In this document: piece after piece, positions 138 to 63,994 of the stretch | Layout of the letters: each line of letters starts with the position of its first letter | Position numbering within the stretch: the stretch's first letter is position 1 | Sequence record: OR352942.1 | Source: Escherichia phage AV112 | Length of the DNA stretch: 64,000 nt | Strand: one strand, 5' to 3' | The notes under the pieces: generated by a model | The model's database searches: none | Seen by the model: the letters and a program-made list of their open reading frames with translations, nothing else | Told to the model about the DNA's origin: nothing | Position numbers and translations under genes: made by a program

Positions 138-509
138 TTATTTGATTTTTGTCCACTTAGCTGAATCAATAACACCTTTTGCTTTAATCTTCTCGATTAA
201 TGCCTCTGCGCGATTTCTGGCATTTTCGTACCATACAACATCTTCGGAGTAACCAGTCTCTTCATCTTCGTAAGTTTTAGAACGAATACAACCATAAACT
301 GTAGAATTCAGACGGTAAATTTCACCGGTGAAAAAGTTTTCGATTTCGATATGATAACAAAAATCGTCTGAAGGGCCATCAGGAGTTGTACAATAAACTA
401 CATCGCCTTGAACCGAACGAACCATCCACTGTAACTCGTTAACAACTTGAGATTTATATCCATCATGGTCGCGGCATTTAATTGTAGCATTTAAATTGAT
501 AGTGTTCAT
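138..509 (-). CDS. hypothetical protein (123 aa)
   Basis: ORF with SD-like site; no recognisable motif. Confidence 0.5.
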   Translation of the reverse strand: MNTINLNATIKCRDHDGYKSQVVNELQWMVRSVQGDVVYCTTPDGPSDDFCYHIEIENFFTGEIYRLNSTVYGCIRSKTYEDEETGYSEDVVWYENARNRAEALIEKIKAKGVIDSAKWTKIK

Positions 510-547
510 TTTATTCTCCGGTTGTTTTATTGATTAGGTGGTACAAG

Positions 548-579
548 TCTATAGTAACACATCCTACAGGAGAGTAAAC
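548..579 (-). promoter_or_regulatory. T4-type early promoter
   Basis: minus-strand GTTTAC / TACTAT-like -10 upstream of ORF 138..509. Confidence 0.4.
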
Positions 580-616
580 ATCTTTTTTAAACTTTTTCTG
601 CCATAAACGCACAAAA

Positions 617-634
617 GGGAGACCGAAGTCTCCC
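617..634 (-). terminator. UUCG-tetraloop hairpin followed by U-tract (rho-independent terminator)
   Basis: GGGAGAC-UUCG-GUCUCCC on minus-strand RNA then UUUU; directly after stop of 640..819. Confidence 0.6.
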
Positions 635-639
635 TAAAA

Positions 640-819
640 TTATGCAGCAACCTTTCCAAAACGAGAAGCATCATCTCGAAGAACTGCACGTGCTCTGCGC
701 ATGATCTTCTCAACCGTTTGATTAATACGAGAGTTCGACCCACGCTTGTATCCAGCGCGTTTAGAGGTACCATCAACTTTCTTTTCGACTGCTTTCTTTG
801 CTTTAGCTTGTTTTGCCAT
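640..819 (-). CDS. small basic Lys/Arg-rich protein (59 aa), not in ORF track
   Basis: my translation MAKQAKAKKAVEKKVDGTSKRAGYKRGSNSRINQTVEKIMRRARAVLRDDASRFGKVAA; followed by terminator hairpin. Confidence 0.45.
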   Translation of the reverse strand: MAKQAKAKKAVEKKVDGTSKRAGYKRGSNSRINQTVEKIMRRARAVLRDDASRFGKVAA

Positions 820-1088
820 TATAAATTCTCTTTAAATGAAAATGCAGGACTTATTGACATTGCCTGCGCAAGCCCTCAAGGGGAACATAGGTTTTGGATA
901 TTTAACGACAGGATAACCATAAACCTCGTCATCATACCAACCACGACTTAGACAGATAACCTTTTTCTGACGCGTGATAGTACAAAATACATTCAAGAGG
1001 TACACCGTAAAATTGTCGGGGCGGTACTTCTAAAACATACCGATTCGCAAATCGATAATCAGACAATTCGACGGCTCCTCGATTTAAC

Positions 1089-1337
1089 TTACTTCAGGGT
1101 AATAACAAAATGACGAACTGCTTTACGTGCTGCAGAAGCCAGAGGCTTAGCATATTTCAATTCATCTTTCTGGACCAGGATATCGCGAAGATCGGCTTGT
1201 GCTGGATTCAGATGTTTGAAATACTGTAAGATTTCAAGAGCTTCGGCTTCAACATCAATAGATGCACCGTAATTGTCATGGCCATTATTCCATGCATGGC
1301 GTTGCAGTTCAAGAGCGTGTTGTAATTGTTTAATCAT
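1089..1337 (-). CDS. rIII: rIII lysis-inhibition accessory protein
   Basis: 82 aa, matches T4 rIII size and position next to gene 31. Confidence 0.75.
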   Translation of the reverse strand: MIKQLQHALELQRHAWNNGHDNYGASIDVEAEALEILQYFKHLNPAQADLRDILVQKDELKYAKPLASAARKAVRHFVITLK

Positions 1338-1461
1338 TTTAAATTCTCAATTCGAGATAATATTTAGTAGCCACGTTCGTCTGAATTTCACCTTCTTTCG
1401 ACAAGTCTCTCAGTTGTAGGCTACCGCTTAGAAGAGTGTTCTCTTCATATAGTTATTTATA

Positions 1462-1794
1462 TCACTTATAAAGACACGGAATAGCTTTATAGTGGCATGT
1501 TACGAATTTCTGTTTAATTTCTTTAGGTTGTTTAAGACCCAAAGCCACAAATGGATGTGGAACATTTCGAATTTGTCCAACTGGTAGTGGAGTCAAATCA
1601 CCGACTTCAACAAAACCTTCAGGAACATCAGGACCTACAGAATGAACTACACATAGTTCAGGAACTTCACCTTGAACACGTTTACCAATCACAAGTCCTG
1701 ATTCTGTAACTTCTTCATCACCTGCTTGAGCGGGTTCAGAAACCAGAATGACATATTCACCAACAGCACGAATTGGGAGTTGTACTTCAGACAT
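1462..1794 (-). CDS. 31: gp31 head-assembly co-chaperonin (GroES-like)
   Basis: 110 aa, resembles T4 gp31; synteny rIII-31-cd. Confidence 0.8.
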
Positions 1795-1851
1795 CTTATT
1801 TCCTTGTTGTTTGACGATAGATTAATAATACTATACTATTTGTAAAGCATA

Positions 1852-2160
1852 TTACATAAGAAGCAAACGTTCTACCGGAGAGCCATCAACCGAAATTACT
1901 TTATCAAGGCGGAAAGAACGCCACTGACCTAACTTGGTATCGAATGCTCGAACTGATTCACGAGGTTCATAACGAACTTCTGTTGCTGGATTGTTATTTT
2001 CATATTTGACTTCAAGTTCATCGCGCGAAGCAAACATAGTGCGTACCTCGCCGTTAGCCTTTTCAAATACAACACAATGAACGCCTACAGACAGAATAGT
2101 TTTAATACGTTCACGAAGAACCATAGTTTCTTGTTCAGTTAAAATCATATTATTCACCAC
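1852..2160 (-). CDS. hypothetical protein (102 aa)
   Basis: ORF between gene 31 and cd. Confidence 0.5.
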   Translation of the reverse strand: MVNNMILTEQETMVLRERIKTILSVGVHCVVFEKANGEVRTMFASRDELEVKYENNNPATEVRYEPRESVRAFDTKLGQWRSFRLDKVISVDGSPVERLLLM

Positions 2161-2731
2161 AAAAGTTTCGGATTTGTTCCCAATTCAGAGAACGAAGATT
2201 ATTACGAGAGTACTGAATTACTTCAATACCGGCTTGTTTTAGAATGTCTGCCCAATTTTCAGGAGATCTGTCATATAATTCTGCGTATACAACCTTTTTA
2301 ATACCTGACTGCGTAATAGCTTTAGTGCAATCAGGACACGGAGAAAGCGTCGTATATAACGTAGCACCTTCAATAGAATTACCTTTACGAGCTGCAAACA
2401 AAATTGCGTTCAGTTCCGCATGGATTTCGTTATTAGCAGACCATGCACTATGAGCCGCTCGATGTTCTTTAGCCAAAACAAAATTATCTGCCCGTCCAAA
2501 TGCCGTAGTGCCTTCTTTATGTCCAGCAACGATGACCGGACTTGGTTTATTCTTCAACCAACCATTTTCAGATGCATGTTCACAACAGTTAATTCCACCT
2601 GCGGGTGAACCATTATATCCAGTAGAGATAATGCGTCCATCTTTTTCAATGACGGCACCAACTTTCCATGAACAACATTTTGATTCTTGAGAAATCAAAT
2701 AAGCAATTTGAAGATACGTGCTAGCTTTCAT
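2150..2731 (-). CDS. cd: dCMP deaminase
   Basis: cytidine/dCMP deaminase zinc motifs HAE...PCxxC (CCEHAS..., HAELNAI, SPCPDC); 193 aa as in T4 Cd. Confidence 0.9.
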   Translation of the reverse strand: MKASTYLQIAYLISQESKCCSWKVGAVIEKDGRIISTGYNGSPAGGINCCEHASENGWLKNKPSPVIVAGHKEGTTAFGRADNFVLAKEHRAAHSAWSANNEIHAELNAILFAARKGNSIEGATLYTTLSPCPDCTKAITQSGIKKVVYAELYDRSPENWADILKQAGIEVIQYSRNNLRSLNWEQIRNFCGE

Positions 2732-3723
2732 TATTGAACCTTATTAATATAAGTTAACAACTCTTTAGTTTGTTCCCAACTGATGCACGCATCGGTAACG
2801 GAAACGCCATAGGACATATTATCAGAAATTTTTTGATTTCCTTCATGTAGGAATGATTCTATCATAATTCCTTTGACCAAATCATTAGCTGCTAAATTTT
2901 TACCAATACCAATTTGATTGCTATAATACCCATCAGCGTTTGCATGGCTACAGTCAACCATTACATAATGATTCAGACCTAATGCACTTGCTTTGTTAGA
3001 AGCTTCTTGAATATCAGAAGAATGATAGTTCGGGCCATTAGTCCCGCCACGCAATACGATATGCGTATTCTGATTACCTTCAGCTTCAACAATGCCTACA
3101 GTACCATCGACATCCATACCCATATACCGATGAGGCCAGGCGGCACTATACATCGCGTCTGTAGCTACTTTAATAGAACCATTGGTTGCGTTCTTGAAGC
3201 CTACGCACATCGGTAGACCTGAAGCAATTTCACGATGTGTCTGACTTTCAGTCGTACGGGCGCCAATAGCAACCCATGAGAAAATACCAGAAAGATACTT
3301 AATCGTGAATGGGTCTAATACTTCAGTTGCTAATGGAAGTCCCATACGTAGAAGTTTACGACACAATGTTCGTGCAACTATAAGACCGTGGTTCATATCA
3401 AAACTTCCGTCAAGATATGGATCATTTACAAGACCTTTCCAACCTACGGTAGTTCGAGGCTTTTCAAAATAAACGCGCATCACTAACAGAACATTAGGAA
3501 GACGAGTTTGAAGTTCAGCCAGACGTTTGCCGTATTCAACAGCAGCAATAGGGTCATGAATTGAACAAGGACCTACAACAATAAGTTTGCGTGGGTCTTC
3601 ACCGTTCATAATCGAATTAACTTGTTCGCGATGAGAAGCCACTTGTGATGCGTAAGCTTCCGACAAAGGAATAATCTCAGCCAGTTCTTTTGGAGAAATA
3701 AGTTTTCTGATGACAGGTAACAT
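2731..3723 (-). CDS. 3-deoxy-7-phosphoheptulonate (DAHP) synthase, class I AroG/AroF-like
   Basis: VVGPCSIHD, MRVYFEKPRTTVGWKGL, AIGARTTESQTHRE, GFKN, HIVLRGG and ESFLHEGNQ motifs line up with E. coli AroG incl. metal ligands. Confidence 0.85.
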   Translation of the reverse strand: MLPVIRKLISPKELAEIIPLSEAYASQVASHREQVNSIMNGEDPRKLIVVGPCSIHDPIAAVEYGKRLAELQTRLPNVLLVMRVYFEKPRTTVGWKGLVNDPYLDGSFDMNHGLIVARTLCRKLLRMGLPLATEVLDPFTIKYLSGIFSWVAIGARTTESQTHREIASGLPMCVGFKNATNGSIKVATDAMYSAAWPHRYMGMDVDGTVGIVEAEGNQNTHIVLRGGTNGPNYHSSDIQEASNKASALGLNHYVMVDCSHANADGYYSNQIGIGKNLAANDLVKGIMIESFLHEGNQKISDNMSYGVSVTDACISWEQTKELLTYINKVQ

Positions 3724-4420: not shown

Positions 4421-4645
4421 TCAGTGCACAGTATTTACTTTAACTCGAACAACAAATCGCTCGGTTGGTTCACCTACAGGAACAAACTCTACATGATATT
4501 CACCTTTGTAACGAGTATTCAGGTCGTTACGAATTTCGGTAAGCTTGTTGATTAATGTAGAACTCATATTAAGTCCCACTAGTTTACGAAGCATTTTGTA
4601 TGCTTCATCTTCGATTTCATGATGTTTATCGTACATAGTTTTCAT
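4421..4645 (-). CDS. hypothetical protein (74 aa)
   Basis: small ORF, cd-pseT cluster. Confidence 0.45.
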   Translation of the reverse strand: MKTMYDKHHEIEDEAYKMLRKLVGLNMSSTLINKLTEIRNDLNTRYKGEYHVEFVPVGEPTERFVVRVKVNTVH

Positions 4646-4816
4646 TTAACCATTCAATTGCCTGGTCGACGTTATCAAATATACTGCCGTCCAACCATTC
4701 TTCATGTTCATAGTCCAGCACATCAATACCGAACCGTCCATTTACTAAAGGCCATACTACAAACAAATATTCTTTATGCTGTTCGATGGCCTCAATCACT
4801 TCATATAATCGTTTCA

Positions 4817-4817
<1 letters not shown>
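4626..4817 (-). CDS. hypothetical protein (63 aa)
   Basis: small ORF abutting pseT stop. Confidence 0.4.
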
Positions 4818-5903
<1,086 letters not shown>

Positions 5904-38756: not shown

Positions 38757-38957
38757 TCACAAGTTACGTTTAAAAATTTCTGCTACTTCAAGAAGTTCTT
38801 CTTTAGTAGCTGTATCGGTTTGTATTTTATATCGAATTTCTTTAAAGCGTTCTTTAAAGGACTCTGCTGACTCGATATCAAAAAATCTTTGGATAAGCCG
38901 GAATTCCCGGAGCACCGCTTTATCAAAAAGTTCCAAGTCCACGTTATATGTTCTCAT
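38757..38957 (-). CDS. hypothetical protein (66 aa), rIIA.1 position
   Basis: small ORF upstream of rIIA. Confidence 0.45.
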   Translation of the reverse strand: MRTYNVDLELFDKAVLREFRLIQRFFDIESAESFKERFKEIRYKIQTDTATKEELLEVAEIFKRNL

Positions 38958-39049
38958 AATATTCTCTTCAGTAGATTCCTAGGGCACTATTACTAAAGAC
39001 CATATAATCTATCATCTTATGTGTAATAGTGCCTCAGGCGATTCAGGAT

Positions 39050-40150
39050 TTACGCTGTGAAGATTTTATCCCACATCGCAACAACTGCATCTCGGTTATA
39101 CTTTTTCCATACTGCTTCAGCACGTTTAACTCGAGCTTCGTATGTGTCAGTGAATTCTAATACAGCTTTTGTGTAAAGCGCAACTACTTCTTTCTTAGGA
39201 GTAGAGGAATCAATTTCTACACGCACAGTATCTGGGTCGTATTCGAATGTCGCATGAGGATAATCCTTAAAAACTAACTGGATTACAGGGACACCTTTAG
39301 AGATGGCTTCAATAGAACTATTCTCTACTGTACCTGTGTCAGGACACGTATTAATAAGTGCTTTAGCTGTTTTAAGACGTTCCATGATTTCACTGTGTGG
39401 AGCATCAATAATAACAGGATATTTAGCTGGTGGTGCCCATTTACTAGGACAGTATCCTACACCATTTTCGCCTAGTGCTTTAATTGCTTCAAGAGCAACA
39501 TCGGTGCGGCGCATCTTAGTGTCATAACGTTGTGCACTAATAATCAGATCAGTCGCCGGAAGAACTTCAGGTTTCTCATTCAAACAAATAACCGGGTAAT
39601 CTTCGGCTTCAAACAACGGATTTGCTCGCCAATAATCATAATCAATTTTGTCAGTCAGAGCTGAAGTCATATGGCAATATTTACGTTCAAATTCACGGAA
39701 GGCTTTAGTAGGAGCATAACTCTTACCACCGTTCTTATGAATTTGAATAGTCTGGTCCCAAATTTGAACAATGCCACGAGATACCGGTTCAAATGGTGTT
39801 GCCATAAAATTCTTATGAACTTTAGAGAGACCTGCGTCTTTAATTGCCTGAACGGTTAGTTTAGTCGGTTCCATAGTAACAACAAAATCGTATTCATGGA
39901 TGCCGGCTAGTTCAACAATCTTACGAGCCATAGTATAACTCATACCTAGACTGAATTTAGTCAGATGACCAACAGGATGGTGTGTAACTTTCCAGTCACC
40001 AAACGTGTCATTATCAAAGCCGATATAATCAATATCAGCACCAATAGAAACTAAATATTTCAACACATTTAAATGTACTGCTTCAAGGCCACCTTGTACA
40101 CGGTCAGGATTAAATGGGACTGCACGAGATGGGATAAACATAACTTTCAT
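39050..40150 (-). CDS. GT-B fold glycosyltransferase (candidate DNA glycosyltransferase)
   Basis: 366 aa; C-terminal motif VENSSIEAISKGVPVIQ resembles GT4-type ExxxxxxxE / G-x-P-V signature and T4 a-gt LELGACGTIPVF. Confidence 0.55.
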   Translation of the reverse strand: MKVMFIPSRAVPFNPDRVQGGLEAVHLNVLKYLVSIGADIDYIGFDNDTFGDWKVTHHPVGHLTKFSLGMSYTMARKIVELAGIHEYDFVVTMEPTKLTVQAIKDAGLSKVHKNFMATPFEPVSRGIVQIWDQTIQIHKNGGKSYAPTKAFREFERKYCHMTSALTDKIDYDYWRANPLFEAEDYPVICLNEKPEVLPATDLIISAQRYDTKMRRTDVALEAIKALGENGVGYCPSKWAPPAKYPVIIDAPHSEIMERLKTAKALINTCPDTGTVENSSIEAISKGVPVIQLVFKDYPHATFEYDPDTVRVEIDSSTPKKEVVALYTKAVLEFTDTYEARVKRAEAVWKKYNRDAVVAMWDKIFTA

Positions 40151-40179
40151 AATTAAGCCTTATTAAAATTAAAATGAAA

Positions 40180-40191
40180 CTCCCGAAGGAG
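40180..40191 (-). terminator. short UUCG hairpin directly after gene 39 stop
   Basis: CUCC-UUCG-GGAG then U-rich; weak 4-bp stem. Confidence 0.3.
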
Positions 40192-40192
40192 C

Positions 40193-42010
40193 TTAGGACA
40201 TCCATTCTTTACGAAGTTCTGAATCGTCACCCAACAACATTTCAAAGAGTTCTTTCCAATTTTCAGGAAGTTTAACTACGTCGTACACAGGGTTCTGAAT
40301 CATTTCACGATATTCTGACTTTTCAAGGGAGCCTAATCCCTTGATGTATCGAATACTATGCTTAGGAAGTGTATCTTTAGCTTCTTCATACTCAGCTACA
40401 GTATAAAACCATTTTTGAGTTTTGCCAATTTGTGCAATAATTACAGGCGTTTTAACAAAGCGAATACGTCCTTGTTCAAACAATTCAGGCCAATTACTAA
40501 AGAAAGCAAGCAAAGCCGGATAAATACTTCCAAGACCATCATGATCGGCATCGGTCATAATTGCAATATTACGATAGTTCGTATTCTCTGCCTTTTCACC
40601 AAGAATAAGACCTGTGATAGCACAGATATCAAAGAGCTCTTTGTTCTTCATCATATCGGCATATGACATACCCCAGCTATTCATCACCTTACCACGTAAT
40701 GGGAATCCGCCGTGTAGTTCACGGTCACGAACATCAATGAGATAACCAATTGCCGAATCACCTTCTGTTAAAAACAATGTCGTATCTGCATCTTTACCAC
40801 ATTGGTTAGCTTTAATATGCTTATGAACCTTAGCTTTAGTTGCCTTTTTAGCTGCTTTAGTTTCTGCAGCCTTTTCTGCCGCCAATTTACGAGCTAATGC
40901 TGCTTCAACAATAGGCATAATCAAGGCTTCGTTTTTAAGAAGTGCCTGAGCAATTTTCTTAGCATCTAATTGGATATGATTACGAATATCACCATACGTT
41001 GACGTTAAACGTTCTTTAGTCTGAGAATCAAAACGCATGTTGCTCATGTCTCTAATAAACATCAACATTGTGAGGCATTCTTTAACACGAGCTTTAGTGA
41101 CTTCAATACCCTTATATTTCTTTTTAATGCCAGGCAAAAGATGTTCGCAAATATCATCCATTACACATTCAACATGATGACCACCATTTTTAGTATGGAT
41201 GTTATTCACATAAGTTAAATGACGGAAGCCATCTGGTGATGTTGTGAATGCTATAGAGACTTTATCATTTTCTTGAATGATGTTATCTTCACCAAATTGT
41301 TTAGCAAATCGTTTAAAATTACCATCAACCTTTTTACCATTAAATGTGAACTTGATATCAGGATAAACGACTGCCAATGTTTGAAGACGGTCTAAAGTAA
41401 TATCTAAATAAATTTGAGATAAATTATGCTCTTCAAATGAAGAGAAATCAGGAGTGAAGATTACTTTAGTGCCTTTACCTTTAGATTTCTTAGAAGACCA
41501 TGATTTGTTTTCCATTCCGTTTGAACAGTTAACAGTGATTTCATTTTCGCCATCTGACGTGATGCCTGTAAACAACGTAGAGAAGATATTAGTTAAACTA
41601 CTCCCGACGCCGTTCATACCACCAGTCTTGCGTTCAGAGTCGTCACCAAAGTTACCGCCAGCCTTTGGAATAGTCCAGGCTGCTACAGGCCCAGGAATCT
41701 GTTCACCATTTTGGTCGGTGACCATTGCTTGAGGAATACCACGTCCGTTATCTTCCACTGAGACTTGATTATTTTTAATTTGCACATCAATTTTATTTGC
41801 AAACTTAAATGATGTACGAATAGCTTCATCAACCGAGTTGTCAATAATCTCATCGATTAATTTAACCAGACCAGGAACATATTCAACTTGTTGATATTTA
41901 CCAAACAAAAAACGCTCGTGGGCTTCTTTGGCCGAAGAACCAATATACATGCCACTACGTTTCTTAATATGTTCTACATCTGACAATACCTTAATTTCAT
42001 TTTTAATCAT
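40193..42010 (-). CDS. 39: gp39 DNA topoisomerase II large subunit, unsplit (39+60 fused)
   Basis: 605 aa GyrB-like ATPase + TOPRIM in one ORF. Confidence 0.9.
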   Translation of the reverse strand: MIKNEIKVLSDVEHIKKRSGMYIGSSAKEAHERFLFGKYQQVEYVPGLVKLIDEIIDNSVDEAIRTSFKFANKIDVQIKNNQVSVEDNGRGIPQAMVTDQNGEQIPGPVAAWTIPKAGGNFGDDSERKTGGMNGVGSSLTNIFSTLFTGITSDGENEITVNCSNGMENKSWSSKKSKGKGTKVIFTPDFSSFEEHNLSQIYLDITLDRLQTLAVVYPDIKFTFNGKKVDGNFKRFAKQFGEDNIIQENDKVSIAFTTSPDGFRHLTYVNNIHTKNGGHHVECVMDDICEHLLPGIKKKYKGIEVTKARVKECLTMLMFIRDMSNMRFDSQTKERLTSTYGDIRNHIQLDAKKIAQALLKNEALIMPIVEAALARKLAAEKAAETKAAKKATKAKVHKHIKANQCGKDADTTLFLTEGDSAIGYLIDVRDRELHGGFPLRGKVMNSWGMSYADMMKNKELFDICAITGLILGEKAENTNYRNIAIMTDADHDGLGSIYPALLAFFSNWPELFEQGRIRFVKTPVIIAQIGKTQKWFYTVAEYEEAKDTLPKHSIRYIKGLGSLEKSEYREMIQNPVYDVVKLPENWKELFEMLLGDDSELRKEWMS

Positions 42011-58782: not shown

Positions 58783-59151
58783 TTAAAAGAATTTAAATTT
58801 TTTCTTGGTCCGTTCATTAAAAGCTTGTTGTACTTGCATTGTAACACATTTTTCAACATGCGGTGCAAGTTCTGCTTTTCTGTCCTGGTCAAGAACTGCA
58901 AAGTCCATTACGATTTTACCATCAACCCAGTCTAGTTTTGTAATATAGACTATATGATGAGAACCATCTTCAAGTGTAATCAGAATCTCTTGAATGACAT
59001 TTTCCATTGCTGAACGGATAATTTTAAGAGATTCATTAAACACTCGTTCTTTGCGAATGTCTTCCCCTTCCGAAGAAGGGGATTCATCAACGATTTCTAG
59101 ATTTAAATCATCGAGATTATTCATCGAAATCTTCCATTTCGTCAAGGTCAT
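58783..59151 (-). CDS. 40: probable gp40 head-vertex assembly protein
   Basis: about 113-122 aa between 41 and uvsX; synteny only. Confidence 0.45.
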   Translation of the reverse strand: MTLTKWKISMNNLDDLNLEIVDESPSSEGEDIRKERVFNESLKIIRSAMENVIQEILITLEDGSHHIVYITKLDWVDGKIVMDFAVLDQDRKAELAPHVEKCVTMQVQQAFNERTKKKFKFF

Positions 59152-60289
59152 TTTCTATATCTGCTGCAGACGGAGCATCAGAAGTTTTAACCGGAACTTT
59201 AGTTGTTGCTTTGCAATTAATAAGGTCGTTAACAGCGTCATCAACTTCTTTAATAGAAGAGATAGCACCTAGTTTATATTTAGTTTCAATTGCATCTCGG
59301 AAAGGTTTGTGTTTAAACAACGGTCCCCAGAATTCTACACAATCAGTAGCTTTAGCACGCCATGATTTTTCTTCACGAATCATTTCGCCTGTTTCTTCGT
59401 CAAGGAATTCACGAGCATACCACCCGGCTTTAGGCTTAACTACAAAACCAATTTCAGTTGCCATTTCTAACAAGCCACTGAACGGGTCGATACCACCATC
59501 AAAATTAACTGTGATTGGGAAAGTAGATTTTTCTTTAACGGTGCGAGATTTTTCTGCTTTCAACGTGAAGTCATAACCGGTCAATTCTGTACCTTCTTTA
59601 ACCTGACGTTTAGAGATAAAGAATACAGTGTTAGCAGAGTAAAGAATACCTGTACCACCACCCATAATCTCTTTAGGATACAATCCGCCGATTTCCATTG
59701 CTGTATGGTTAATTGCAACACACGGAATATCTTTAATAGTCAGATAAGGAGTCACAATGCGGAACAGAGATTTAAGTGCCTTAGCACGAGACATATCACC
59801 TACAACTTTCTCGTTCAATGCATCTTCGGTTTCTTTCTTAGATGCAGTATTACCGATTGAATCGATAAAGATAATAACTTTATCACCGCGTTCAATCGCG
59901 TCAAGCTGATTAGTCATATCAACTTTAAGTTGTTCGACAGATTGAATCGGAGTATGAACTACACGGTCTAAATCAACACCCATTGAACGAAAATAAGATT
60001 CTGAAGCACCAAATTCTGAATCATAGAACAAACAAATTGCATCTTTATATTTCTTCATATATGCTGCAACCATGGTCAGTCCAAACAACGTTTTAAAGTG
60101 TTTAGAAGGAGCAGCAAAAATAGTTAAGCCTGATTGCAACCCAGCATTCAGTGCACCACCTAATGCAATATTCAACATCGGAATACGAGTAGGGACTTCA
60201 TCACGATTATTAAACAGCTTAGACTTAGTCAAGTCTGCAGTCATTTTAGAAGTAGAAGCTTTAATCAGACGAGATTTTAAATCAGACAT
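59117..60289 (-). CDS. uvsX: UvsX recombinase (RecA-like)
   Basis: 390 aa; near-colinear with T4 UvsX; acidic C-terminus. Confidence 0.92.
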   Translation of the reverse strand: MSDLKSRLIKASTSKMTADLTKSKLFNNRDEVPTRIPMLNIALGGALNAGLQSGLTIFAAPSKHFKTLFGLTMVAAYMKKYKDAICLFYDSEFGASESYFRSMGVDLDRVVHTPIQSVEQLKVDMTNQLDAIERGDKVIIFIDSIGNTASKKETEDALNEKVVGDMSRAKALKSLFRIVTPYLTIKDIPCVAINHTAMEIGGLYPKEIMGGGTGILYSANTVFFISKRQVKEGTELTGYDFTLKAEKSRTVKEKSTFPITVNFDGGIDPFSGLLEMATEIGFVVKPKAGWYAREFLDEETGEMIREEKSWRAKATDCVEFWGPLFKHKPFRDAIETKYKLGAISSIKEVDDAVNDLINCKATTKVPVKTSDAPSAADIENDLDEMEDFDE

Positions 60290-60388: not shown

Positions 60389-60937
60389 TTAACGAGCCCA
60401 TTTGATAATTTCTGTAATCAAATTATTACGTTCGCTTGCATTAAATCCTATAACTTTGTTAGCACCATCATGATTAAGTAATTGATACGTTTGGATTTTG
60501 TTATGAATTGCAAACTCTTCAAAATATGAAATGACTGTATTAAAACCGAATGAAGACAAAGTAATAAGGTCGTCTTCAAAACTTTCAGTCATTTCGTTAC
60601 GTGTTAAAATAATTGTGAACACATCATGGTTTTGGCAAAGACGAACATAATCCTGTTCATAAACGTCAAGAACCGAGTCCACATCTTGTCGAATACGTCC
60701 ATAAACCCAGTTACTAATATATCCACGGTCTAACAGATAAATCTTAGTAGGGTCTAAATAATTCAACATCGTTTCGAAACAGCCAACTTCATTTCGAGAT
60801 TTAACATCGAAACGTCCATCAACTGTTCGTTTAGGGAAATCAATCTTTACATATCTTTCACTAATTTCCATTATGTCATTAATGAAAGTTGTTTTACCAG
60901 CATTATCCGGGCCATCTACTAAAATAATTTTAGCCAT
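60389..60937 (-). CDS. P-loop nucleoside/nucleotide kinase (thymidylate-kinase-like)
   Basis: Walker A ILVDGPDNAGKTT; LLDRGYISNWVYG resembles TMK/dNK DRY-type motif; 182 aa. Confidence 0.55.
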   Translation of the reverse strand: MAKIILVDGPDNAGKTTFINDIMEISERYVKIDFPKRTVDGRFDVKSRNEVGCFETMLNYLDPTKIYLLDRGYISNWVYGRIRQDVDSVLDVYEQDYVRLCQNHDVFTIILTRNEMTESFEDDLITLSSFGFNTVISYFEEFAIHNKIQTYQLLNHDGANKVIGFNASERNNLITEIIKWAR

Positions 60938-60938
60938 T

Positions 60939-61838
60939 TTATTCCTCGATTACGACATCTTCATATTTAGGTATATTATACGGTGAAGAAATTAAAGCAT
61001 TAAAGTAGATGAACTCACCAAGACCTGGATGGAATACTTCTTCAGGATTTTCGAAATATTGAATCTTCGGTCTTCCTTTAAGAATTTGATAGTACTCAGT
61101 TTTAGTTGGTTTAAAAATTCGAATCAGTGCTTCTTCAGGATACTTATTTCTGTCGAAGCTACTATTTGGATCGGTTATATAAAGCGGTTGACCTAATTGA
61201 ATTGCACATTCAACCACTTGTTCAAAACGATAACACGGGTCACTAATTCGAAATGGATGAAAAATACCATCTAGATGAATAGGAGCCAAATCACCTACAA
61301 GACGCTGCATGATGGAAGGACGTATAACTTTCTGGGTTACGATAATCTTATTACCATCTGCACCTGCGTTAACCAGCACTTCTTTTTGACGTTCATTCAA
61401 CACAGTAGTTTGAAGTGAACGATTAACCGACAACATGTCGGTTTTTAAGAATTCGTCAATGTAAAAACGTGGTTTATTAGGGTCTGCAGTGATATTGAAA
61501 TTGAATTCTACATCAAAAGCGCCGTCATATCCAGTGATATCTGTGATTAGAAAATCACAATCATAATAAGCAATTAATGAATCAACCACAAATTCATTTT
61601 CAGACCAGAAATATTTACGAGTGTTATACGCGTTATCTTTATACCATAATGGAACAAACTTAAATTCTGGGAAAAGACGTTCGCATTCTTTAATATCAGA
61701 TGCATTACGTGGATATGTAATCACATCACCCGGATTAGCACGGTGCAAATGAAGTTGGAAGTTGCCATCCTTAAGGATAGCATACTGTCCAGTTTCATAA
61801 GACCGCATACTCAAGATAGGTACGCGGAAAATAGCCAT
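60939..61838 (-). CDS. hypothetical protein (299 aa), translationally coupled in 42-like operon
   Basis: start overlaps stop of 42-like gene by 1 nt; stop 1 nt from kinase start; no motif recognised. Confidence 0.5.
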   Translation of the reverse strand: MAIFRVPILSMRSYETGQYAILKDGNFQLHLHRANPGDVITYPRNASDIKECERLFPEFKFVPLWYKDNAYNTRKYFWSENEFVVDSLIAYYDCDFLITDITGYDGAFDVEFNFNITADPNKPRFYIDEFLKTDMLSVNRSLQTTVLNERQKEVLVNAGADGNKIIVTQKVIRPSIMQRLVGDLAPIHLDGIFHPFRISDPCYRFEQVVECAIQLGQPLYITDPNSSFDRNKYPEEALIRIFKPTKTEYYQILKGRPKIQYFENPEEVFHPGLGEFIYFNALISSPYNIPKYEDVVIEE

Positions 61839-62554
61839 TAGTCAAGAAATCCTTTAACATAATCAAAATCACGTTCAAACACATGGGCACTTACCATGGT
61901 ATGAGTATAATCACCAACTTCTACACCACATTCGTTAGCGATATAATGAAGTAATTTTCCTTGGAGATAAAAATCCAACTGCATAACAACAGCACAGTTC
62001 TGAGAACGCATATGACAGTGGGTATAAAGCTTACCATCACGAATATAATAAGTCACTGAGTCGGTACATGGATATTCAAGTGTTTCGTCTGAATCAAGCA
62101 AAGCCTGATCAGAACTTTCTAGAATTTGGAACACAACTCTTCGAGAGTTAGGTTTTTCTTTAAGTTCTTTTAGAAGAGTTGGTAACTGGGCCGCAATGCG
62201 AGGACCATAGAAAGTGTTGAAGTTCGCAGGCAAAGCATCTGATTTTGGTTTAGAAATAAATTTAGCGACGTTAGGATATGCCTTAAATGCTTCTTCTGCA
62301 TCAGTACCACCAGAAATCATAAATTTCCAGAAATCTTCAGCATATTCATAAGAGATGCGATTAATACGTGGGTCGGTCATTTTGAATGATGAAGGGGTAT
62401 CAACAACTACTGTCATAGACCCAATTTCATTACAACGTCCAATACGAGAATCAGTTACGAATTCCGGGTTTTCTAAAATTTCACGATTGACGGCTTTAAA
62501 TGCGGATTGAAAATCTGCGGCTTTAATATATTTCATTGTGTTATGTTTTCCCAT
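61838..62554 (-). CDS. 42: dCMP-hydroxymethylase-like enzyme (thymidylate synthase fold), divergent from T4 gp42
   Basis: TS-family core SRRVVFQ...YPCTDSVTYYIRDGKLYTHCHMRSQNCAVVMQLDF with catalytic Cys; Asp aligned with gp42 cytosine-specifying Asp. Confidence 0.6.
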   Translation of the reverse strand: MGKHNTMKYIKAADFQSAFKAVNREILENPEFVTDSRIGRCNEIGSMTVVVDTPSSFKMTDPRINRISYEYAEDFWKFMISGGTDAEEAFKAYPNVAKFISKPKSDALPANFNTFYGPRIAAQLPTLLKELKEKPNSRRVVFQILESSDQALLDSDETLEYPCTDSVTYYIRDGKLYTHCHMRSQNCAVVMQLDFYLQGKLLHYIANECGVEVGDYTHTMVSAHVFERDFDYVKGFLD

Positions 62555-62595: not shown

Positions 62596-62837
62596 TTATT
62601 TGAATTTCTTAGCGATGTTGATATAACGTAGAGCTTCGGCATCGATACTTCCAAGGACGCTATGAAGGAACGCGTCGACATAGTATTCTAGTTGAACATG
62701 TTCTCTTTAATCACTTTAGCCGCTTTAGTTTCAAACAGGCCCATAAGGGCCTTTTTAAGAATTTGTTCGTTGTTGTTAATTTTAATAGTCAAAATCTCTT
62801 CGTTAAGTTGGTGGTTAAAAGTTTTTCTAGAAATCAT
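62596..62837 (-). pseudogene. small ORF apparently interrupted by a frameshift (49 aa + 31-aa continuation in another frame)
   Basis: ATG 62837 overlaps stop of upstream gene; TAG at 62688; different frame reads on to TAA 62596 with no ATG. Confidence 0.3.
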
Positions 62838-63994
62838 TCTGGGTACCTCAAAGCGTCATCAGAGTTAGTTATATCAATAATAGATATAGAGTTTTCCGAT
62901 AACCCATTTTTAGATAACTGACGTTTATAATATCTTTCACAATATGTACACGTCGTCCCACAGATTTCATTAGCACAATCGAAATCTGGATGTTTGAACC
63001 ACCTTTTTTCTAAAAAGCCATCTAACAAAGAGGTTTCAATATTTACCGTATGTGAAAACTCAGTCTCATTTTCAAGAGTGAAAATGGTCTCTAAAGGCTT
63101 CCACAATTCCAACAAATTACCTTCAAATTTTTCAGAAGCATAAGCTTCAAGAACTTTCAAAATGTAGTCTGTGCTACCTGTACGTCCTGAAACTTTGAAT
63201 TGAGTGATACCAATATCATTATAAAGTTTCAAATCTTGAGGACGAACAAAACGAGTTCTCAACCAGTTAAATGGATCTGTATCACGAGCTTTAATACAGT
63301 GCTGCATTGGATATCCATTTAAGGATTTGGCATCATCTACTGTAACATCAGTGCTATGGAAAATATAGCAAGAGTCACGATAACTACAATGTGTTGTATA
63401 CCCTTTACCAGCATTAGAACAGAACTCATTTACAAGAACTTCAAATATTATATTGTTCTTATTACAAAACTCTGCTGCACGCTTCAGGAAAGAAACTGAA
63501 CGGTTCTTATGAATTCCACAGCAGACCTTTTTGATATTATATTGGTCATGCAAGTATTTGATTTGAGTTACAGCATCGACATGTAGAATTGTTGAAACTT
63601 CAATCTCAATGTCTTTATTGACTTCACGAACAATTTCCATAACAACAGGGTTAGCGATAGTAATACGCCAAACGCCTATTGACCAAAGATACTGAACATA
63701 ATCCTGAATAGCTTTCTTCTTCCACTCAACTAGTTCTCTTTTTGAACCAGGATTTATCGTGTTGAGTGTATAGTTAAAGCAAATACCTAATTCGTTACAA
63801 CGTTTAACGTAATCTTCTAACATCTTTTTGTCAACGTCAGGAAGCCTAAAATCAGGTCTGGCTGCTACAAAAGCCATTTCTCTTGTAGAGCCGTATACTT
63901 CGTTTATCAAGCTATTAGGATAAGTTTTATTGAGCTCTACGATTTTATCAAGAAGAGCTAAATCAAAATTCGTTCCGATTTTAAAGGTATTCAT
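62834..63994 (-). CDS. Cys-rich hypothetical protein (386 aa), possible Fe-S enzyme
   Basis: Cys clusters CCGIHK, EFCSNAGKGYTTHCSYRDSC, C-terminal CANEICGTTCTYC (contains C-x3-C-x-Y-C). Confidence 0.5.
   Translation of the reverse strand: MNTFKIGTNFDLALLDKIVELNKTYPNSLINEVYGSTREMAFVAARPDFRLPDVDKKMLEDYVKRCNELGICFNYTLNTINPGSKRELVEWKKKAIQDYVQYLWSIGVWRITIANPVVMEIVREVNKDIEIEVSTILHVDAVTQIKYLHDQYNIKKVCCGIHKNRSVSFLKRAAEFCNKNNIIFEVLVNEFCSNAGKGYTTHCSYRDSCYIFHSTDVTVDDAKSLNGYPMQHCIKARDTDPFNWLRTRFVRPQDLKLYNDIGITQFKVSGRTGSTDYILKVLEAYASEKFEGNLLELWKPLETIFTLENETEFSHTVNIETSLLDGFLEKRWFKHPDFDCANEICGTTCTYCERYYKRQLSKNGLSENSISIIDITNSDDALRYPE

Follow-up and report, generated by a model that had tools for sequence, protein, structure and literature searches.

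A GT-B glycosyltransferase between rIIA.1 and gene 39 of a Mosigvirus genome is most likely a DNA arabinofuranosyltransferase, with a proposed role in adding the second arabinose

What does the 366-residue reading frame between rIIA.1 and gene 39 of this phage encode, and is it the enzyme that attaches sugar to the phage's own DNA? The original prediction, made on the 64,000-nucleotide stretch analysed here (the window), took the product to be a GT-B glycosyltransferase and a strong candidate for the DNA sugar transferase. We find the gene where it was said to be, running intact from ATG to stop with rIIA.1 on one side and gp39 on the other (Table 1), and the IEAISKGVPVI motif on which the assignment leaned spans residues 280–290 of the protein. 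The window matches the record of Escherichia phage AV113 (OR352943.1, genus Mosigvirus) at 100%, and that record labels the gene "hypothetical protein". The GC content of the gene is 0.39–0.41 and its neighbours are not distinct from it; a recent foreign insertion is not supported, the base composition being in no way atypical.

Table 1. Positions of the features discussed in the text, numbered along the window.
Feature	Position	Strand	Remarks
rIIA.1	38757..38957	-	
Spacer between the glycosyltransferase stop and the rIIA.1 start, 92 nt	38958..39049	-	stable hairpin
RNA hairpin in this spacer	38978..39034	-	
gp3-type glycosyltransferase	39050..40150	-	ortholog of RB69 ORF003c/gp3 and of the HY126 glycosyltransferase; PHROG 8302
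Short gap (42 nt) that separates the glycosyltransferase start from gp39	40151..40194	-	AAGG ribosome-binding site 8 nt 5' of the glycosyltransferase ATG; weak stem-loop 40194-40177
gp39	40193..42010	-	
uvsX (landmark)	59117..60289	-	Pfam T4_UVSX_C and RecA; T4 has segA and b-gt here
Thymidylate-like nucleotide kinase	60389..60937	-	RB69p045 homolog; PHROG 761 (thymidylate kinase), E 7e-45; RB69 synteny
GT1-type compact GT-B-like protein, 299 aa	60939..61838	-	intact RB69p046:47; PHROG 3891
ThyA-superfamily 5-hydroxy-dCMP synthase	61838..62554	-	ortholog of RB69 gp48
Peptidase-U32-like protein	62834..63994	-	RB69p050 homolog; Pfam Peptidase_U32, E 6.3e-11; PHROG 5757

On the T4 map, the interval between rIIA.1 and 39 holds gene 60, 60.1 and mobA, while b-gt lies between uvsX/segA and gene 42 and a-gt near gene 55, so the statement that T4 has no glycosyltransferase at this locus holds. 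Since the content between rIIA.1 and 39 differs between T4 and the window, this interval is a variable slot in T-even genomes. Gene 39 of the window is a single 605-residue reading frame for the topoisomerase large subunit, the unsplit 39+60 form. In T4, gene 60 has a translational bypass and mobA is a defective homing endonuclease. Scans for promoters and terminators around the glycosyltransferase gene gave counts not above shuffled expectation, and the same is true of the terminator-like site in the short spacer on its gp39 side; the gene is probably co-transcribed with gp39. In the spacer on the rIIA.1 side, an RNA hairpin with a perfect 11-bp stem (GGCACTATTAC / GTAATAGTGCC) and a 29-nt loop has a minimum free energy of −28.5 kcal/mol (z −4.58), with 0 of 200 shuffles equally stable, and it may serve in processing or attenuation between the two genes.

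The protein is almost exactly that of phage RB69. An ungapped alignment with RB69 ORF003c/gp3 (NP_861693.1) gives 361 identical residues out of 366, with 5 substitutions, and the order rIIA.1–glycosyltransferase–39 is shared with RB69; gene 39 is unsplit in Mosigvirus. The statement in the original prediction that some RB69-like phages carry a glycosyltransferase at the same position is confirmed by 99% identity and common synteny. We refer to the family as gp3-type below. It matches PHROG 8302 over residues 1–366 with an E value of 2.5e-222, a group that PHROGs label "unknown function", and it retrieves zero Pfam families at E ≤ 10, Glycos_transf_1 and Glyco_trans_4 included, and zero NCBIfam families at E ≤ 1.

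A profile of the gp3 family searched against the PDB recovers one sequence, 9IQZ/9IR0 (E 1.9e-171), released on 2025-07-16 under the title "phage HY126 glycosyltransferase" in an apo form and one "with UDP". HY126 is another Mosigvirus and is among the DNA matches to the window. The window protein is essentially identical to the crystallised HY126 glycosyltransferase and has the same three-dimensional structure as the solved enzyme, and the title of 9IR0 implies that the HY126 protein binds UDP. Searches for a paper on 9IQZ/9IR0 by code returned only unrelated chemistry, and the cryo-EM/arabinosyltransferase matches were mycobacterial work. We also considered whether chain "H" of 9IQZ marks a complex of a defence protein with its phage trigger and rejected this, as the title names a phage glycosyltransferase only.

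The fold consists of two Rossmann-like β/α/β domains with a cleft between them (GT-B). Residues invariant across the family comprise a GGLE loop, Arg208 and Arg214, Lys263, and Glu276 and Glu281. The two glutamates form an acidic motif, E276-x4-E281 (VENSSIEAISKG), that is not the canonical E-x7-E; an alignment made by eye, and not from a residue-level structural superposition, places Glu281 with the second glutamate of E-x7-E. The reading frame most likely encodes a UDP-binding, GT4-like GT-B enzyme that serves as a DNA arabinofuranosyltransferase of Mosigvirus.

The closest fold neighbours, PimA, BshA, MshA, WaaG, the sucrose-phosphate synthase 6KIH and BH4 glucosyltransferase, raise another possibility, namely that the acceptor is not DNA but a host lipid or LPS, a small thiol, a pterin or a protein, and one GenBank record of an ortholog indeed reads phosphatidylinositol mannosyltransferase. 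At 10–15% identity, however, these matches are at the level of the superfold, and the gp3 family is restricted to T4-like phages with an arabinose module, in which the gene is embedded both in Acinetobacter phages and in the Logan contig SRR26937416. Moreover, homologs from the Acinetobacter phage DLP3 act on DNA in vitro (PMC13326640), and we consider a non-DNA acceptor very improbable. Homology to a capsule- or LPS-type glycosyltransferase had been named beforehand as an outcome that would speak against a DNA role: such similarity is present at the level of the fold, at 10–15% identity to PimA, BshA and WaaG, and it does not refute the DNA role because the DLP3 proteins gp76 and gp77 act on DNA in vitro.

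Orthologs of gp3 carry a range of names in GenBank, among them hypothetical protein, DNA alpha-glucosyltransferase, ATP-binding protein, phosphatidylinositol mannosyltransferase and putative hmC-arabinosyltransferase. In Shigella phage JK45 (NC_054940.1, positions 1907–2709), we observe 503 bp duplicated perfectly in tandem (100% identity across no fewer than 300 nt). The duplication spans the 3' 411 nt of the glycosyltransferase gene and the 92-nt spacer and creates an extra 136-residue CDS; it is either a very recent event or an assembly artefact. NCBI taxonomy classes JK45 as a Tequatrovirus, yet its locus is of the Mosigvirus type at 98% nucleotide identity.

Which sugar and which base are involved is known from RB69 and its relatives. 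Arabinose was found in RB69 DNA, and ORF003c, the sole glycosyltransferase recognisable by HMM/HHpred, was proposed on that evidence to be the arabinosyltransferase (Thomas et al. 2018, PMC6024577). Arabinose is ether-linked at C5 of the modified base, which is 5-hydroxycytosine (5hoC) and not hmC (PMC13326640; PMC13390438); RB69 gp48 has been shown experimentally to make 5hodCMP (Lee et al. 2026, PMC13326640). The link to arabinosyl hmC drawn in the original prediction was therefore right about the sugar, which is arabinose and not glucose (PMC6024577, PMC13326640, PMC13390438), and wrong about the base. RB69 DNA carries mono- and di-arabinose, the structure being beta-D-Araf-(1->3)-alpha-D-Araf-O5-dC, and in the DNA of DLP3 a third beta-D-Araf-(1->5) is added (PMC13326640). 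In the DNA of the Mosigvirus NP, the mono and di forms stand at 1:4 (AEM 2026, PMC13390438). A preprint gives a single arabinose for phage LC53 (bioRxiv 10.64898/2025.12.19.695335), and papers citing the primary work give a double arabinose for Bas46 and describe Bas46 lacking the arabinosyltransferase "Aat" as sensitised to a plasmid-borne defence. A citing paper credits He et al. 2026 (Nat Chem Biol) with the characterisation of the enzymes of HY126.

The enzymology has been approached in vitro with the DLP3 pair. DLP3 gp76 and gp77 jointly add the third Araf from UDP-Araf onto RB69 DNA; individually each is inactive, no single glycosyltransferase was active on bare 5hoC DNA, and the acceptor of the first sugar was left as nucleotide or DNA (PMC13326640). 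In the same work, gp46:47 was put forward for the first transfer and gp3 for the part of "beta-arabinosyltransferase 2" (PMC13326640), and the order with gp3 as the second transferase was proposed independently in PMC13326640 and PMC13390438.

The counterpart of gp46:47 in the window is the 299-residue protein that we call GT1. Its gene is 99% identical at the nucleotide level to RB69 p046+p047, the RB69 record having one extra T. This T, within positions 4598–5498 of RB69 (NC_004928.1), splits the gene into p046 and p047, whereas the 299-residue frame of AV113 is intact; similarly, the RB69 p052/p053 pair corresponds to a single 561-residue CDS in AV113. The intact AV113 frames confirm the reading of the RB69 splits as sequencing errors given in PMC13326640. 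Neither Pfam nor NCBIfam has a signature for GT1, and PHROGs describe its group as of "unknown function". The AF2 model (pLDDT 92.9) nevertheless has Foldseek matches to MshA, plant UGTs and UDP-GlcNAc 2-epimerases at E values of about 1e-6. GT1 is proposed to be the first, base-proximal, alpha arabinosyltransferase. The gp3-type and GT1 families are unrelated in sequence, hhalign giving no signal between them, and their fold neighbours differ.

The gene for GT1 occupies the slot that holds beta-gt in T4, between the kinase and 5-hydroxy-dCMP synthase genes. The observation that a beta-gt is missing near uvsX was accordingly correct as regards T4-type enzymes, of which tblastn finds no a-gt or b-gt homolog anywhere in the window (best E 1.4–2.9), but the slot is filled by a GT-B-like gene. 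The ThyA homolog next to it is 236/238 identical to RB69 gp48 (Pfam Thymidylat_synt, E 1.9e-15) and only 25% identical to T4 gp42; given the near-identity to gp48, the window encodes a 5-hydroxy-dCMP synthase and not a dCMP hydroxymethylase. The kinase, which Pfam does not detect at E ≤ 0.01, presumably phosphorylates the modified dNMP. The U32-peptidase-like protein belongs to the arabinose module; it is a "sugar or heterocycle reductase" candidate only (PMC13326640), and the annotated DLP2 cluster lacks it. The remainder of the module lies past the end of the window, at AV113 positions 96048–98936, and comprises a phosphatase, a kinase/UDP-sugar pyrophosphorylase (the 561-residue CDS, which is bifunctional) and an arabinose-5-P isomerase.

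With two candidate transferases in one genome, their distribution becomes informative. A tblastn search locates GT1-type genes, almost always adjoining the ThyA homolog, in 348 records from phages of Escherichia, Acinetobacter, Klebsiella, Shigella, Serratia, Enterobacter, Proteus, Yersinia and other genera, and the proteins form at least 138 clusters. The gp3-type genes occur in 211 records, all Mosigvirus-like or Acinetobacter-type: 155 are Mosigvirus-like at ≥95% amino acid identity, and 56 are Acinetobacter-type, each with two copies, at ~42%. By these counts the gene is under strong conservation, and at the nucleotide level the locus is common to more than 150 Mosigvirus records at ≥95% identity. 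The gp3-type proteins form 10 clusters, with 11 representatives among 1.84 billion in an exhaustive HMM search. By these sequence comparisons, GT1 is present in every arabinosylating T4-like phage lineage, with gp3-type nested within that set. LC53 (OP617331.1) fits this pattern in having a GT1 homolog flanked by the kinase and ThyA genes, and no Serratia record is found among the gp3-type matches. The copy number of gp3-type genes thus tracks the number of beta-linked sugars, from zero copies and mono-arabinose in LC53 through one copy and di-arabinose in Mosigvirus to two copies and tri-arabinose in Acinetobacter phages, a correlative argument, with sugar number known for a handful of phages only.

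The nested distribution, together with mono-arabinosylated LC53 that has no gp3-type gene, indicates that gp3-type is most likely the elongating enzyme. We infer that the first-transfer step belongs to GT1 and the second to gp3-type, and we consider it likely that the latter adds the beta-(1->3) second Araf to DNA after GT1 has attached the first. The original prediction thus went too far in casting this protein as the one DNA sugar transferase of the phage, as GT1 is the proposed enzyme for the first sugar and gp3-type most likely acts second.

The 2018 proposal, whose view the original prediction shares, would instead make gp3-type the primary, base-proximal arabinosyltransferase and leave GT1 with another role. 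ORF003c was, after all, the only glycosyltransferase that HMM/HHpred could recognise (Thomas et al. 2018, PMC6024577), GT1 lacks Pfam and NCBIfam signatures, and the plain PDB title may mean that the depositors regard the HY126 protein as the transferase of the pathway. We find this assignment unlikely for three reasons: gp3-type is missing in most lineages that have the 5hodCMP synthase and the arabinose-activation cluster, arabinosylated LC53 among them; GT1 is universal, adjoins the synthase and has a GT-B fold; and the DLP3 homologs are inactive on bare 5hoC DNA (PMC13326640).

The position of gp3-type genes varies among T4-like genomes. The DLP2 cluster runs isomerase, pyrophosphorylase/kinase, phosphatase, ThyA, GT1, kinase, gp3-type, gp3-type. 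Two metagenomic contigs of uncultured T4-like phages show further arrangements. In the Logan contig SRR26937416 (positions 450–3019), we observe that the gp3-type gene overlaps the start of GT1 through their stop and start codons, with the kinase next, and in the JGI contig 3300045321 (3040–4224) it lies downstream of genes for DNA ligase and DsbA. Co-occurrence with 5-hydroxy-dCMP synthase, GT1 and the UDP-arabinose genes is complete in the window and AV113 and is seen also in DLP2 and the SRR26937416 contig. These differing positions suggest an accessory gene that has moved repeatedly yet is tied to the arabinose pathway.

The overlapping pair in the SRR26937416 contig suggests co-expression, which bears on a further alternative, that gp3-type works only in an obligate complex, with GT1 or as a self-oligomer, and that its role is partly structural or specificity-conferring. 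The activity of DLP3 gp76 and gp77 only when together (PMC13326640) points the same way, as do the chains up to H in 9IQZ. In Mosigvirus, however, there is a single gp3-type gene 20 kb from GT1, the invariant GGLE loop, Arg208/Arg214, Lys263 and Glu276/Glu281 fit an active enzyme, and UDP is bound in 9IR0. We therefore judge an obligate complex of this kind improbable, although the individual inactivity of the DLP3 enzymes does count against the assignment of gp3-type to the second step.

Under our preferred assignment, with gp3-type as the elongating transferase, the pathway would run as follows. The ThyA-like flavoenzyme would make 5-hydroxy-dCMP, and 5-hydroxycytosine would then be incorporated into the phage DNA, while the cluster on the uvsX side would build UDP-D-arabinofuranose from ribulose-5-P. 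GT1 would put the first, alpha-linked Araf on the O5 of the base, and gp3-type would use UDP-Araf to place a second beta-(1->3)-Araf onto this first sugar in polymeric DNA. The outcome would be di-arabinosyl cytosine, the dominant form in Mosigvirus DNA, and the longer glycan may widen protection against DNA-targeting defences.

This scheme has consequences for mechanism. To form one alpha linkage plus one or two beta linkages with the same donor takes enzymes of two mechanistic types. GT4-like folds are normally retaining. Judged from structural models, the retaining GT4 neighbours of gp3 and the different neighbours of GT1 would fit a division of labour between alpha and beta linkages. A beta-linked product on a normally retaining GT4-like fold nevertheless counts against the proposed role, and whether the two are consistent depends on the anomer of the donor. 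If the donor is the alpha-anomer of UDP-D-Araf, gp3-type would catalyse inversion with a scaffold of the retaining type and would in addition be a portable "glycan-length module" found at four or more positions, a combined idea that is speculative and rather doubtful.

Which restriction, CRISPR, glycosylase and type IV systems can act against a phage is determined by the glycan that its cytosines carry, and the number of arabinoses shifts the spectrum of effective defences. Knowing that AV113 has the two-transferase, di-arabinose configuration is thus useful for phage annotation and for the choice of therapeutic phages. The finding itself is already known, the enzyme having been proposed in 2018, its structure released in 2025 and its place in the pathway discussed in 2025–26, and nothing here is conceptually new. 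The value lies in a correct annotation of AV113 and in exposing a blind spot of the domain libraries for both transferases: Pfam, NCBIfam and PHROGs give neither of them a function, and most GenBank records, that of AV113 included, consequently say hypothetical.

How, then, does the gp3-type enzyme compare with known systems? The comparison with T4 Agt and Bgt and with the RB69 reading frames that the original prediction called for sets a near-identical RB69 ORF003c against T4 enzymes without homology. The T4 enzymes differ from gp3-type in acceptor, sugar and genomic position. The hhalign probability for gp3-type with a-gt and with b-gt is 0.2% each, and neither is recovered by the PDB profile search of the gp3 family at E ≤ 10. 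Even when ranked by fold, AGT comes only 38th, with bacterial GT4 enzymes ahead of it, and BGT falls outside the top 60. A parallel in function is found elsewhere among the T-even phages. The beta-alpha-glucosyltransferase of T2 and T6 is the second-sugar enzyme for gentiobiosyl-hmC. It too extends a monosaccharide on a modified cytosine and is lineage-specific (PMC13390438 and T-even biology), a functional analogy only, with glucose on hmC there and arabinofuranose on 5hoC here. From the bacterial GT4 enzymes PimA, BshA, MshA, WaaG and 6KIH, gp3-type is set apart by its 10–15% identity, by E-x4-E and by its proposed acceptor, a DNA-borne sugar.

The DLP3 pair is considerably nearer. DLP3 gp77 and gp76 (DLP2_047 and DLP2_048) are full-length homologs, 43% and 40% identical to the window protein, which use UDP-Araf and extend arabinosylated DNA with beta-Araf (PMC13326640). 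They are two paralogs, 57% identical to one another and 41–44% to gp3. A neighbour-joining tree indicates that the Acinetobacter paralogs arose after the split from Mosigvirus, which would make the Mosigvirus gene co-orthologous to both. We therefore found no support for gp3 as the specific ortholog of DLP3 gp77, as implied by the NAR paper, since the paralogs are closer to each other in this tree. The DLP3 genes sit within the cluster by the kinase, unlike the window gene at rIIA.1–39, and the pair makes the third, (1->5) linkage, whereas gp3-type is proposed for the (1->3) second one. Nearest of all are RB69 gp3, the HY126 glycosyltransferase and "Aat" of Bas46 and Bas47, all under PHROG 8302, which are practically the same protein as that of the window, and the RB69 system agrees with it in length, fold, synteny and the arabinose/5hoC module.
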